Origin: a virus
Lineage: Duplodnaviria > Caudoviricetes
Strand: one strand, 5' to 3'
IMG/VR virus record: IMGVR_UViG_3300020050_007888
Location: 7,554-71,553 of that record
DNA length: 64,000 nucleotides
The notes below the pieces were generated by a model. The model ran no database searches. It was not told the DNA's origin and worked only from the letters and a program-made list of their open reading frames with translations. A program made the translations under genes and the position numbers. Below, piece after piece: positions 997-8,375 of this stretch (the first letter of the stretch is position 1; each line of letters opens with the position of its first letter).

Positions 997-2207
997 TGCA
1001 CTTCGGACTATTTGAGGGTATAGGGGGCTTCTCGTTGGCGGCTCAGTGGATGGGATGGAAAACATATCTTACATCTGAGATTAATCCGTTTTGCAATAAG
1101 GTTTTGGATTATCATTTTCCAGAATCATACAGGCATGGAGATATTCACACATTGAACTATGAAACAATTAATATTGAACTTACAAAACGGTTTGGAACCC
1201 ACTGGAGAAATGACGACATCATCGTTACCGGTGGGTTCCCATAACTATGCCAACCATACAGCGCAGCCGGAAAGCGACTTGGAACGGAAGATGACAGGCA
1301 TCTCTGGCCGGAAATGCTTAGAGCAATTCGAGAGATTCAACCAACCTGGATCGTGGGCGAAAACGTTCGGGGCTTTACTAATTGGAACGGGGGCATGGTA
1401 TTCGACCAGGTGCAGGCTGATTTGGAAGCTCAGGGCTACGAAGTCCTCCCGTTTCTACTTCCAGCTTGTGCCGTCGGCGCACCGCATAGAAGAGACAGGA
1501 TATGGATTGTTGCCTACTCCAATGGCTTGCGAAGGTCACAAGAACATGAGTTGCAGCGATCAGAACTATTTAAGCAATCATGCAAGATCAGGTCTTCTCC
1601 CATCCCCCGTAGCGAGCGATGCGACCACGGGAGCGATAATAGGGAAGAACGATACGTTCAGAGAAACGAAAGGTCTACCGAGGAAGGTGAATCAGAACGG
1701 CAAGGACGGGAGTGTGGGATTAGGGAGGTTGGTTCAACTCCTTCCGACCCCAACCACGGGAGCCGATCACGGGACGCAGTACAAGCAGGGCGGGAGGAGC
1801 CTGAAGAATTTTATGGACCACAACGGTCTCTTACCAACACACAGAGAAGCGGCATCGAGGGGAAATTGCAGCAACAACAGAGGGAAGGGGAATTTAGAAG
1901 ATGCGATAGCGGGTATGTTGCCAACTCCAACGGCCAACTGTCACAAGGGAGGAGCGGTGAGGACAGACCCATCGAGGCAGAGCGACACGTTGGCACACCA
2001 CTTCGCAACGACTACTGGGCAAACTTCCCAACTGTCGCCCCTGTTTGTATGCGAAATGATGAGCTTTCCTTTGGATTATCTGGTATTACCTTTCCAAAAT
2101 GGCGAAACGAAAGCATAAAGGCGTTGGGCAATGCAGTAGTGCCGGCGTTAGTCTACGAAATATTTAAAGCGATTGAAAGTTATGACCCACCACCTACAAG
2201 CAGTTAG
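993..2207 (+). CDS. dcm: C5 cytosine DNA methyltransferase main chain (motifs I-VIII and X), interrupted by an in-frame TAA-CTA at 1242-1247; recoded gene or pseudogene
   Basis: Motif I (LFEGIGGF), then TGGFP-TAA-CTA-CQPYSAAG (motif IV), GENVRG (VI), PHRRDRIWIVA (VIII) and IKALGNAVVP (X). Track ORFs 933..1244 and 1314..2207 are in the same frame. Confidence 0.85.
1159..2118 (+). CDS. Overlapping +1-frame ORF, putative second methylase subunit (target-recognition repeats plus motif IX); true start uncertain (1159, 1210 or 1291)
   Basis: A 319-codon frame inside the dcm gene. It has five (L/M)LP(T/S)P-type repeats and ends QLSPLFVCEMMSFPLDY, a motif-IX-like segment absent from the main frame. 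The layout matches M.EcoHK31I alpha/beta. Confidence 0.75.
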   Translation: MKQLILNLQNGLEPTGEMTTSSLPVGSHNYANHTAQPESDLERKMTGISGRKCLEQFERFNQPGSWAKTFGALLIGTGAWYSTRCRLIWKLRATKSSRFYFQLVPSAHRIEETGYGLLPTPMACEGHKNMSCSDQNYLSNHARSGLLPSPVASDATTGAIIGKNDTFRETKGLPRKVNQNGKDGSVGLGRLVQLLPTPTTGADHGTQYKQGGRSLKNFMDHNGLLPTHREAASRGNCSNNRGKGNLEDAIAGMLPTPTANCHKGGAVRTDPSRQSDTLAHHFATTTGQTSQLSPLFVCEMMSFPLDYLVLPFQNGETKA

Positions 2208-2381: not shown

Positions 2382-3374
2382 ATGATAAGATATAGCCCTA
2401 CGCCCATAGAGGCAAACAAGAATGTGAGCATATTAATATGCCACCGAAATACGTTAGAGAATATCACGCTATGCGTGAGTTCTATTCTGACGCACTACCC
2501 CGATATTGAGATTCATGTATTGGATGGCATGAGTGATGACTATTCAAGAACATGGCTTAAGACAAGGGAGCAGATATACCCGCATCTGCATATCCACGAC
2601 TGGACAACGGACTATCATAGTCATGGCGTGATGATGGACCACGGTATCAAGAACGTTATCAAGACACCTTATGTATGGCTGATGGATTCGGATGTGATCG
2701 TGAGGTACAGGGTACGCCTGCCCGATGTAGAATACGCCACCGGTACACTCATGGTACAGAGTAAGAAGGGAGAGGGTTGTACACCAGGTGAAGGTGAAGA
2801 CTCCTTCCGCTACATCCATCCTTCGTGTTGTATCCTGGACAGAAGTAAGTATCAGGAGTACGCCCCCTTTACGGATCACGGTGCGCCCTGCGTATGGAAT
2901 ATGATAGAGGCGAACGAGGCGGGAGAGGTGCTGAGGGACTGGCCGGAAGGAAATGCAAGTATCCTGCATCTGTGTGGAGGGTCATGGACGACACCACGAA
3001 CAGTATGGTGGCATGATATGGGGGTGCAGACGAGACCGCTGGTGAGCTGGTTGGTTCCGATGGGGTTGACAGGACTACACCATGTACACGTAGACTCCGA
3101 AGTTGTAGTGAGAACAGATGTTGGTTTAAGCGAAGAAGATAATATTCAAATAGTAGGGTGGCTACAATTGCAGGTAATGAGCGATAATAGCTACTGGAAC
3201 CGTATGCGAGTGCGAGGCGAGTATGTGACATCACAGTACGTCAGTCATGAAGAAATCGAAGAGTTGGCTCAGTCCATCATACAGCACGGAGCGCAAGAGA
3301 CCTTCGGTCCCTTCACCCGCAGGGATGTTTGGCAGAGGAACACGACAAGGGGGAAATTATTACAACAGCAATAG
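2382..3374 (+). CDS. Glycosyltransferase, GT-A fold (GT2-like)
   Basis: VSILICHRN...EIHVLDGMSDD...TPYVWLMDSDVIV gives the GT2 N-terminal pattern with a DxD motif. Confidence 0.8.
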   Translation: MIRYSPTPIEANKNVSILICHRNTLENITLCVSSILTHYPDIEIHVLDGMSDDYSRTWLKTREQIYPHLHIHDWTTDYHSHGVMMDHGIKNVIKTPYVWLMDSDVIVRYRVRLPDVEYATGTLMVQSKKGEGCTPGEGEDSFRYIHPSCCILDRSKYQEYAPFTDHGAPCVWNMIEANEAGEVLRDWPEGNASILHLCGGSWTTPRTVWWHDMGVQTRPLVSWLVPMGLTGLHHVHVDSEVVVRTDVGLSEEDNIQIVGWLQLQVMSDNSYWNRMRVRGEYVTSQYVSHEEIEELAQSIIQHGAQETFGPFTRRDVWQRNTTRGKLLQQQ

Positions 3375-3499: not shown

Positions 3500-3814
3500 A
3501 TGTTAGTCACAATCACCTCAGACGAAAAGATCAACGCAATCTTAGCCCCATTAACAGCAGCCGGTAACCCCGCATCAGTAGATGGTACTCCGGTATGGAC
3601 AGTAGTATCTGGCGACGCTACACTTGTTCCTGCAACAGACGGACTTTCTTGCTACCTTGTATCAGGATCAGTAGGCAACTCTGTTATCACTGTAACAGCG
3701 GATGCAGACCTCGGAGCAGGCGTAACCGAAATCACTGACACCATTGACTTAGCTGTTGTGTCTGCACAGGCTTCTTCACTTGGATTATCATTTGGCGCAG
3801 CAGAGCTTAAATAA
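3500..3814 (+). CDS. Small Ig-like beta-sandwich protein (possible virion decoration)
   Basis: All-beta Ser/Thr/Val-rich pattern (PVWTVVSGDATL...SVITVTADAD), an A/C-rich leader, and TATCTTTG at 3431-3438 upstream. Confidence 0.55.
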   Translation: MLVTITSDEKINAILAPLTAAGNPASVDGTPVWTVVSGDATLVPATDGLSCYLVSGSVGNSVITVTADADLGAGVTEITDTIDLAVVSAQASSLGLSFGAAELK

Positions 3815-3817
3815 GCA

Positions 3818-4132
3818 ATGAAAATCAACGTCGTACTGGACAACGCCAAGATTTACGCTGTCGATAAGATAGATGTACGTCTTGGCGAGGTCTTCAGGGT
3901 AGAGCTTGAAGATCAGGTCAGCAGGGTAGACTGGTTCAGCAACAACGATCCGGTGTTACGTATAGAAGTCAGTGAAGATGGAATGTCGGCTGTTGTACAG
4001 ACGCAGACTATCGGGAAGACGACTGTACAGTTTCAGCAGAACGGGAATGTGATACGGTTCATTGCTATTGAGATATTCGACCGCACAGCCGTGTCGTTGA
4101 ACCTCAGCTTTGGACAGCCGGAGGTGAAGTAA
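3818..4132 (+). CDS. Small Ig-like protein, paralogue of the upstream gene
   Basis: Same length (104 aa) as the upstream gene; C-termini align as AVSLNLSFGQPEVK versus ASSLGLSFGAAELK. Confidence 0.5.
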   Translation: MKINVVLDNAKIYAVDKIDVRLGEVFRVELEDQVSRVDWFSNNDPVLRIEVSEDGMSAVVQTQTIGKTTVQFQQNGNVIRFIAIEIFDRTAVSLNLSFGQPEVK

Positions 4133-7480: not shown

Positions 7481-8375
7481 GAATATACTCATCACCGGTG
7501 GCTGTGGCTTTGTGGGCGGGCAGCTTGCAAGGTATTTTGCTAAGGATAACTACGTGACTGTAGTGGATGATTTACGGTATAAGAAGTTTATTCCTGAAAG
7601 ATTTCACCATTTGATGATACCGGAGAACTGCCGCCTTATAGACGGTCCTATGTGCCGCGCTCCGCTACATGATATTGATATTGTCATTCACGCGGCGACC
7701 GTCAACATCATCGACTCTATGACTAATCCAAAGGGGTGCATGGACGTGAACTGGTGGCAGAGCGTAGAACTCTTTGACAGGATCGGTTACGATACGCAGA
7801 TTGTCTACCTGAGCACAAGTAGTGTTTATGGCAACGCCACGGTGTACCCTACTCCCGAAGTGGACAGGGTGAACTGCACCAACTACTATTCGATTAGCAA
7901 GCACTTAGCCGAGATGTATTTGTTGCAACGCAGAAAGGATGCTTGTGTAGTGAGGTTAAGCAACGTCTACGGAGAAGGGCAGATGCCACATAATCCGTAT
8001 GCGGGAGTGATGAGTAAGCTGTTTCGGGCGAAGATCAGAAAGGAGTTATTTGTCCTCTATGGTGACGGGCAAACCACAAGGGATTATACCTATGTAGGTG
8101 ATGTGATTTCGGGCGTGGAGGCTGCTATAATTAAAGGCGTGAGAGGGGTGTATAACATTGGTACCGGAATAGAGACGACCACATCGGATTTGACATGGAT
8201 GATGGGTGTGGAAGTGGTGGTGTCAGAACCAAGAAGCATAGATAATATCCTGCGCCGGAGTATAGATGCTAAGAAGTTAATGATGGATACAGGGTGGAGC
8301 GTGAAGGTAGACTTGAAGGAAGGCTTACGCCGGCAGGAAGAATGGTTAATGGAGAATGGGATATTTGATAAATGA
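7461..8375 (+). CDS. NAD-dependent epimerase/dehydratase (extended SDR, NDP-sugar modifying)
   Basis: ILITGGCGFVG (GxxGxxG), YLSTSSVYG, YSISK (YxxxK), RLSNVYG and RDYTYVGDV. Confidence 0.93.
   Translation: MEPIKDKNILITGGCGFVGGQLARYFAKDNYVTVVDDLRYKKFIPERFHHLMIPENCRLIDGPMCRAPLHDIDIVIHAATVNIIDSMTNPKGCMDVNWWQSVELFDRIGYDTQIVYLSTSSVYGNATVYPTPEVDRVNCTNYYSISKHLAEMYLLQRRKDACVVRLSNVYGEGQMPHNPYAGVMSKLFRAKIRKELFVLYGDGQTTRDYTYVGDVISGVEAAIIKGVRGVYNIGTGIETTTSDLTWMMGVEVVVSEPRSIDNILRRSIDAKKLMMDTGWSVKVDLKEGLRRQEEWLMENGIFDK

Follow-up and report, generated by a model that had tools for sequence, protein, structure and literature searches.

M.EcoHK31I of E. coli HK31 (target YGGCCR) is a C5 cytosine methyltransferase made of two polypeptides, in which the beta gene lies wholly inside the alpha gene in another reading frame (Lee, Kam and Shaw 1995, PMC306636, as described in PMC2836561 and PMC3404938). 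In that enzyme, alpha also holds the target-recognition domain and beta supplies only motif IX. A second natural two-subunit enzyme, M.AquI (CYCGRG), is split so that the variable region and motif IX are supplied by a chain other than the one carrying motifs I-VIII, with motif X also on the second subunit (PMC3404938). The two M.AquI genes lie side by side rather than overlapping. The multispecific methyltransferases of the Bacillus phages SPR, phi3T and rho11s, on the other hand, are single chains whose variable region is built from several tandem units, differing in number and kind between relatives, with each unit conferring one target. On the translational side, phage T4 gene 60 bypass is linked to the mobA homing-endonuclease element, and synthetic in-frame stop-hops have been described in E. 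coli (PMC5009743; bioRxiv 10.1101/2022.08.31.505936). According to PMC5009743, no natural case of the latter is known.

Here, a locus combining features of these systems was analysed in a window of 64,000 nucleotides from a virus of the Caudoviricetes (IMG/VR record IMGVR_UViG_3300020050_007888, positions 7,554 to 71,553). Positions refer to this window and all features lie on its plus strand. A first-pass annotation had described about 960 nt open in two frames, with a methylase in the main frame lacking motif IX and five LLPTP repeats followed by a motif-IX-like end in the +1 frame. This observation was confirmed, with every feature found where it had been placed. The main frame (993-2207, 'alpha') contains FEGIGG of motif I (1011-1028), GGFP-TAA-CTA-CQP (1230-1256), GENV of motif VI (1356), RRDRIW of motif VIII (1488) and motif X GNAVVP (2127-2144), but no motif IX. 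The +1 frame is open from 1156, with an ATG at 1159 and a TAA at 2116-2118, giving a nested ORF of 319 codons ('beta', 1159-2118). The third frame has about 40 stops over the same span.

Alpha consists of an N-terminal part of 83 codons (993-1241), ending in the GGFP of motif IV, and a C-terminal part of 319 codons plus stop (1248-2207). Both parts match Pfam PF00145 above its gathering score of 22, with 25.6 bits (E 1e-5) and 98.1 bits (E 8.8e-28), respectively. The C-terminal part comprises CQP, GENV, RRDRIWIVAYS (1488-1520), about 165 codons without conservation in the alpha frame, WANFPT...GITFPKWRNESIKAL (2016-2126) and motif X. The uninterrupted catalytic Pro-Cys of this family is not encoded, as motif IV is split by TAA-CTA, and would be restored only by a 6-nt hop. 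In the AF2 model of the homologue at locus L003, whose alpha is intact, residues 1-165 and 334-366 are confident while residues 180-333 are disordered. Foldseek matches this homologue model to M.HaeIII (1dct) and M.HhaI at E values of about 1e-12, but over about 165 columns only. The large-domain fold is predicted from a homologue rather than from the window's own chain. The variable region of alpha, disordered in the same model, is off-frame filler, as the first-pass annotation had suggested.

Next, it was examined whether the double openness could arise by chance. With the alpha protein held fixed, the +1 frame stays open in 2.25% of synonymous resamplings of 1248-1520 and in 3.7% of those of 1158-1241. 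With the beta protein held fixed, the main frame stays open across 1501-2115 in 0 of 20,000 resamplings, with 14 stops expected and none seen. Chance is thus excluded. Frequent stops in the +1 frame of homologues had been named beforehand as a finding that would speak against the overlap, but both frames are open in 91 of 91 complete related loci, while the third frame has a median of 14 stops. Codon-position entropy indicates that the frame under selection switches from alpha to beta and back to alpha. A beta ATG lies 19-24 codons before motif IV in nearly all of 86 loci, although no obvious Shine-Dalgarno sequence precedes the ATG at 1159 when judged by eye. Beta matches phrog_1008 (E 1.7e-20), and 1357 relatives were found at E<=0.001 among clusters built at 90% identity, as well as 1340 representatives of 50%-identity clusters.

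These data all but rule out that the +1 ORF is a non-functional by-product of the sequence and base composition of alpha. It is true that the region is purine-rich and that the N-terminal similarity of beta is partly forced by the conservation of alpha. However, in the variable region the third position of the +1 frame is the most variable and alpha is not conserved. In addition, the 1340 clusters match the beta part alone, the second repeat module is 80% identical across relatives that are about 45% identical overall, and all lengths of the insert described below keep the +1 frame. The +1 ORF is therefore a real, conserved coding frame.

The N-terminal segment of beta (1300-1485, residues about 48-108) is predicted to fold as two helices and a hairpin (AF2 pLDDT 65-81) and is encoded on the same bases as alpha motifs IV-VIII. 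Four-fold sites of alpha are less variable here (1.44 against 1.84 bits, p 0.015), with the lowest values where beta has the near-invariant residues F70, C85 and Q102/L103. It is followed by five LLPTP-headed modules (1504-2028), where the third position of the +1 frame varies most. These are M1 (1504-1590, GLLPTPMACE), M2 (1591-1734, GLLPSPVASD), M3 (1735-1824, QLLPTPTTGA), M4 (1825-1911, GLLPTHREAA) and the first part of M5 (from 1912, GMLPTPTANC). Relatives carry one to five LLPTP motifs (4, 35, 44, 22 and 15 of 120 proteins, respectively). As single-linkage clustering lumped nearly all modules into one group, each module was searched separately, showing that M1 to M4 occur in 4, 50, 9 and 41 of 119 relatives in mosaic combinations. 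M2 is both the best-conserved module and the best predicted one (pLDDT 80-87). The repeats are therefore modular, as proposed. That they are separate target-recognition units, or that the enzyme is multispecific or anti-restriction, is not shown by these data. As in the Bacillus phage enzymes, the variable region is built from tandem units that differ in number and kind between relatives, but here the units lie in a separate overlapping gene.

The end of beta, QLSPLFVCEMMSFPLDYLVLPF (2029-2094), is present in 112 of 119 relatives. M300, M301 and F303 are invariant, most other residues of the segment are nearly invariant and the third position of the +1 frame again varies most. The conserved pattern QLxPxFVxEMMGFPxDW resembles motif IX, but this identity rests on motif resemblance only. 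Pfam searches with beta and with 72 relatives gave no family, a PDB sequence search with the beta profile gave no match and hhalign of this profile against E. coli Dcm gave a probability of 0.6%. Beta alone is also poorly predicted by AF2 (mean pLDDT 58, pTM 0.28). Foldseek against the PDB returned no match at E<=0.001 and a wide VIA-align search gave a best Z of 3.4, so no fold can be named.

The alpha frame is interrupted at 1239-1250, which reads CCA (Pro, proposed take-off codon), TAA (stop, 1242-1244), CTA (proposed landing codon) and TGC (catalytic Cys), with a 6-nt insert at 1242-1247. The intact relative L002 reads CCA TGC at this site. This stop does not seem to result from decay, since 61 of 66 related protein clusters (61-86% identity) end at the same GGFP. 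Twelve loci with DNA sequence, the window included, carry a Pro codon directly followed by one or more stops, CCN or CTN and then TGC. The insert is 6 nt in ten loci, 9 nt in one and 15 nt in one, so that the beta frame is always kept, and all three stop codons are used. In eight of the 12 loci the proposed take-off and landing codons are both Pro, while the window and three others have CUA or CUG, which can pair with the Pro anticodon only through a central G-U pair. A suppressor tRNA was rejected as an explanation, since the window has no tRNA gene and relatives use all three stops, sometimes two in a row. A relay through a short third-frame ORF (ATG 1247 to TGA 1292, overlapping the beta ATG at 1291) was also rejected, because this ORF follows from the conserved codons of alpha and its start is not kept in relatives.

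Directly upstream of the insert, an RNA hairpin is predicted at 1194-1239, with 12-bp arms at 1194-1205 and 1228-1239. The 3' arm is formed by the T-G-G-F codons and ends at the first base of the take-off Pro codon. In the window, the fold is at -36.8 kcal/mol (z -2.95). Insert-bearing loci fold at -24 to -31 kcal/mol, compared to -11.0 +/- 3.6 kcal/mol for 94 intact loci. Across the alignment, 99.1% of cells are paired, two pairs are compensatory and 0 of 500 shuffles match, indicating a covarying hairpin specific to insert-bearing loci. The insert also looks mobile. An HNH_3 endonuclease gene lies directly upstream in 6 of 14 insert-bearing loci against 0 of 76 intact loci, the insert-bearing loci are polyphyletic and one locus (L027) is a chimera joined exactly at the insert. 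No HNH gene lies beside the gene in this window. The upstream ORFs of the window were rejected as cassette parts, since they have no homologue beside other insert-bearing loci, and ORF 251-772 has only a weak endonuclease hit (phrog_945, E 8.7e-4).

The absence of an HNH gene, as after decay, together with an in-frame stop in the catalytic motif and the tie of the insert to a mobile HNH cassette, might suggest that alpha is a dead gene killed by a selfish element, with only beta, or nothing, still working. This is considered very unlikely. Across eight insert-bearing loci of about 50% divergence, alpha downstream of the stop keeps Cys, ENV, RxR and motif X, and its third positions vary most (0.357 against 0.235 and 0.149), consistent with purifying selection. 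There are no other lesions, and the hairpin is kept by compensatory changes.

Another possibility, raised in the first-pass annotation next to a recoded chain, is that the stop at 1242 terminates translation and that the enzyme assembles from three pieces, an alpha-N of 83 aa, alpha-C and beta. C5 methyltransferase fragments can indeed complement each other (PMC3404938) and gene callers find the 83-aa piece in 61 clusters. However, no in-frame ATG, GTG or TTG lies between the stop and the M at 1314, which is past the catalytic Cys, and the cut would fall inside the catalytic Pro-Cys loop. The Pro, stop, Pro/Leu pattern, the double stops in two insert-bearing loci (L031 and L046) and the hairpin are also unexplained by plain termination. 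Three polypeptides are thus unlikely, and less likely than a recoded alpha chain.

The selection pattern by itself also fits a single polypeptide made by two programmed frameshifts, from alpha to the +1 frame after motif VIII and back before motif X, giving the canonical order of motifs I-VIII, variable region, IX and X. In this clade, a switch back near 2090 would give a canonical IX-X spacing, and rare database proteins (P0193 and P0234) join PF00145 motifs and the beta region in one chain. However, P0193 lacks motif X and P0234 lacks motif VIII, as frame-fusion errors would. Such frameshifting does not explain why alpha stays open through about 600 nt of filler, nor why beta stays open, with a conserved ATG, for about 340 nt upstream of the supposed shift. 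Moreover, the alpha strand IWIVAY after RxR and the first GLLPTP of beta use the same bases, so one chain cannot hold both, and no slippery site was seen on inspection of the sequence at either junction. This reading also seems unlikely.

Taken together, the best explanation, held with moderate confidence, is a two-chain C5 cytosine methyltransferase encoded by one stretch of DNA. In this view, alpha would supply the catalytic large domain (motifs I-VIII) and the motif X helix, joined by a disordered linker that is only the off-frame reading of beta. Beta would start at its own ATG upstream of motif IV and supply a small N-terminal fold, a variable region of LLPTP-headed cassettes and a motif-IX-like end, the parts that in one-chain enzymes form the small DNA-reading domain. 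Ribosomes would probably hop from CCA over TAA to CUA, restoring GGFP-CQP, and a hairpin refolding behind the ribosome probably helps. The insert would belong to a mobile cassette that elsewhere lies next to an HNH homing endonuclease gene. The analysis shows that both frames are conserved and selected, and that the insert, the hairpin and the apparent mobility of the cassette are real. Translation of both chains, their assembly into a methylating enzyme, the hop itself and DNA recognition by the modules are inferred from sequence and structure prediction.

The interpretation given in the first-pass annotation is thus only partly supported. The analogy with M.EcoHK31I fits, as a second, conserved chain is nested in another frame of the gene of the first. 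Different from M.EcoHK31I, the whole variable region, about 175 residues in five modules, and an extra N-terminal fold are in beta, whereas the variable region of alpha is not under alpha-frame selection. As in M.AquI, the variable region and the motif-IX-like end are in a chain other than the one carrying motifs I-VIII, but motif X is in alpha here rather than in the second subunit. The layout is also shared by over a thousand sequence clusters, while a literature search for a published description of this widespread layout found only the M.EcoHK31I papers. As in T4 gene 60, a proposed take-off codon is followed at once by a stop, with a 5' stem-loop. A candidate landing codon, matched in eight of the 12 loci and at best near-matched in the window, and an apparent link to an HNH homing endonuclease and cassette mobility, seen in part of the insert-bearing loci, would also fit this system. 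However, the gap is 6-15 nt rather than 50 nt, stays in frame as in the synthetic stop-hops, and lies inside a doubly coding stretch, so that its length is held to multiples of three. It is possible, though still tentative, that the insert is a natural, programmed in-frame stop-hop. It would sit in a stretch of about 50 nt carrying three layers of information at once: the codons of alpha, the codons of beta and the hairpin that drives the hop. The gap length, forced by beta to be a multiple of three, would then be a natural read-out that beta is translated, and the LLPTP cassettes would be exchangeable DNA-reading units that reset the targets of the enzyme.

If the two-chain reading is right, a large class of phage and prophage cytosine methyltransferases (over a thousand sequence clusters) is mis-annotated as single genes, with their DNA-recognition subunit hidden in the +1 frame. 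This would change how their specificities should be predicted and how they should be cloned. The locus is also a long, ancient and well-supported same-strand overlap in which two folded segments, as predicted, share the same bases, and such cases are rare. The insert offers a compact natural candidate for ribosomal stop-hopping tied to a selfish endonuclease, with a built-in constraint provided by the overlapping frame. Finally, the cassette-like modules suggest a route by which phage methylases change targets.

In the window (bases 7554-71553 of a 71.5-kb IMG/VR virus record), the frame starting at 993 reads a C5 cytosine methyltransferase, here called alpha. Its motifs are FEGIGG (1011), GGFP, then CQP, GENV (1356) and RRDRIWIVAYS (1488), followed by about 165 codons of charged low-complexity sequence, WANFPT...GITFPKWRNESIKAL and GNAVVP (2127), with the stop at 2205. 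Pfam PF00145 matches both sides of an in-frame TAA at 1242. This stop is part of a 6-nt insert, TAA CTA, wedged between the catalytic Pro and Cys codons, whereas the intact related locus L002 reads CCA TGC at the same place. The +1 frame holds a 319-codon ORF, here called beta (1159-2118), with five LLPTP-type motifs and the ending QLSPLFVCEMMSFPLDYLVLPF, exactly as described in the first-pass annotation, whose observation is confirmed. The third frame has about 40 stops. Upstream, positions 1-288 encode the C-terminal end of a primase/helicase-like protein (phrog_18375, E 1.7e-6), cut by the window edge. Directly downstream, a family-2 glycosyltransferase (PF00535, E 1.8e-8) is encoded at 2382-3374, and a weak PF00535 Pfam hit also follows the methylase on the contig that carries the database protein P0137. 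Next, two adjacent 104-codon ORFs at 3500-4132 have similar ends (...SLGLSFGAAELK and ...SLNLSFGQPEVK) and look like tandem paralogues.

The double openness is not due to chance. When synonymous codons were resampled using the window's own codon usage with the alpha protein fixed, beta stayed open in 2.25% of the trials for 1248-1520 and in 3.7% for 1158-1241. With the beta protein fixed over 1501-2115, alpha stayed open in 0 of 20000 trials, with fourteen stops being expected and none seen. Beta also belongs to a large family, matching phrog_1008 at 1.7e-20, with 1357 relatives at 36-63% identity, none with a Pfam domain, and 1340 clusters at 50% identity for the repeat part alone.

Next, 107 related loci were collected. 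Frequent +1-frame stops among homologues, set beforehand as evidence against the reading, were not found: in 91 of 91 loci with a complete alpha, the +1 frame is open from motif IV to the edge of motif X, while the third frame has a median of 14 stops there. In a more distant group (FAGAGG...MWPTP), the two ORFs are nearly co-extensive. Nearly every locus has a +1-frame ATG 19-24 codons before motif IV, often right after the stop that opens the frame. A single chain made by two frameshifts explains neither the end-to-end openness of both frames nor this conserved start. The rare database proteins P0193 and P0234 do hold PF00145 motifs and the beta region in one chain, but P0193 lacks motif X and P0234 switches frame before motif VIII, so they look like frame fusions and not true one-chain enzymes. 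In L013 (190-300) and L016 (1233-1340), two of the related loci, a run of Gly codons lies right after motif IV, and in L013 the alpha N-part continues in frame into beta at this run. Locus L019 differs from L018 and L020 by one base. These may be assembly errors or slippage-prone tracts.

Codon-position entropy over 75 loci showed that the third position of alpha is the most variable through motifs I-VIII and again at motif X. In the variable region and the motif-IX-like segment, the most variable position is the first of alpha, which is the third of beta. The variable region of alpha is therefore indeed off-frame filler, as the first-pass annotation had proposed, and beta is the coding frame there. 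Where the N-terminal part of beta overlaps alpha motifs IV-VIII, both frames appear to be constrained. The four-fold sites of alpha are less free there (1.44 bits against 1.84 before beta starts, p 0.015), with the strongest constraint where beta has near-invariant F70, C85 and Q102/L103. AF2 predicts this segment of beta (residues about 50-110) as two helices and a hairpin at pLDDT 65-81. Two folded segments therefore seem to share the same bases.

The predicted alpha structure of an intact homologue (locus L003) is confident for residues 1-165 and 334-366 and disordered for 180-333. It matches M.HaeIII and M.HhaI at E about 1e-12, but only over the roughly 165 columns of the large domain. 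Among the fold matches are also PDB 3g7u and 3lx6, two structural-genomics entries for prophage 'putative DNA cytosine methylases' of E. coli and Shigella, whose genes may be of the same two-frame type and whose structures may show the disordered filler. Beta alone is predicted to fold poorly (pLDDT 58), with only the N-segment and the second repeat module, M2, exceeding 70, and it matches no solved fold. None of the profile methods used ties the end of beta to motif IX, so this assignment rests on motif resemblance and on its position just before motif X.

Among 120 relatives, the number of LLPTP motifs is 1 (4 proteins), 2 (35), 3 (44), 4 (22) or 5 (15). The window's modules M1-M4 occur in 4, 50, 9 and 41 of 119 relatives, respectively, in mosaic combinations, and no relative has all four. 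M2 is 80% identical in proteins that are about 45% identical overall. The N-part and the motif-IX-like end are nearly universal (92 and 112 of 119). The cassette-like build is therefore real. That each cassette reads a DNA target, as in the multispecific Bacillus phage enzymes, remains an inference, and the interpretation in the first-pass annotation, which took the repeats as possible target-recognition units, is partly supported.

The stop at 1242 is conserved. A search with the 83-residue N-fragment found 66 clusters, of which 61 (61-86% identical) end at the same GGFP. In 12 loci with DNA, the insert reads Pro codon, one or two stops (TAA, TAG or TGA), sometimes AAA AAA, then CCN or CTN, then TGC. 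The insert lengths are 6 nt (ten loci), 9 nt and 15 nt, always multiples of three, so the frame of beta is kept. An enzyme assembled from three pieces, as considered in the first-pass annotation, is less likely since the part of alpha after the stop has no start codon. Downstream of the stop, alpha keeps all catalytic residues and its third positions vary most among insert-bearing loci, from which it is inferred to be still translated.

The insert is preceded by a 12-bp hairpin (1194-1205 with 1228-1239) ending at the Pro codon. The 57 nt before the insert fold at -24 to -31 kcal/mol in all insert-bearing loci, against -11.0 +/- 3.6 in 94 intact loci. The stem is kept by compensatory changes that alter the amino acids of alpha (H, R or L), with 99.1% of cells being paired and 0 of 500 shuffles doing as well. 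This covariation, together with the continued selection downstream of the stop, contradicts the possibility that alpha is dead.

The insert also appears to be tied to a mobile element. An HTH-HNH_3 gene lies directly upstream in 6 of 14 insert-bearing loci and in 0 of 76 intact ones. In L026 (1365-1820), L031 (1080-1511), L033 (976-1401) and L107 (1092-1523), these HTH plus HNH_3 (PF13392) endonuclease genes of 142-152 aa end at or overlap the start of insert-bearing methylase genes, and they are 63-73% identical to each other. Insert-bearing loci are polyphyletic. Locus L027 (1700-2100, compared with L064 and L071) is a chimera: its first 83 codons, hairpin and stop insert are of the window's type and its part before the insert is only 59-61% identical to intact human-gut-metagenome (gut-phage) genes, while from the Cys codon onward it is 98-99% identical to them. 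A 20-residue remnant of an HNH C-terminus lies just upstream. The N-part, hairpin and insert therefore appear to move as a cassette whose junction is the Pro|Cys site. In this window, no HNH gene remains nearby. The 173-aa ORF at 251-772, with a FRSRLEARWA-type N-terminus and a Cys-rich C-terminus, matches phrog_21138 (unknown function) strongly and an endonuclease family only weakly (8.7e-4), and has no counterpart beside other insert-bearing loci.

The arrangement matches the logic of T4 gene 60/mobA and the form of the synthetic stop-hops, although the proposed landing codon in this window is CTA (near-cognate). According to PMC5009743, no natural stop-hop is known. The openness of and selection on both frames, the cassette-like build of beta, the conserved insert and the covarying hairpin follow from the sequence comparisons, while the production and pairing of two chains, the motif IX role, target recognition by the modules and the hop itself are inferred. 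Taken together, the best reading is a two-chain enzyme of the M.EcoHK31I kind. Here, beta would carry the whole variable region plus an extra fold and alpha would be completed by a stop-hop over a mobile insert, and the multiple-of-three rule for the insert would follow from this combination of a two-frame layout with a hop cassette.
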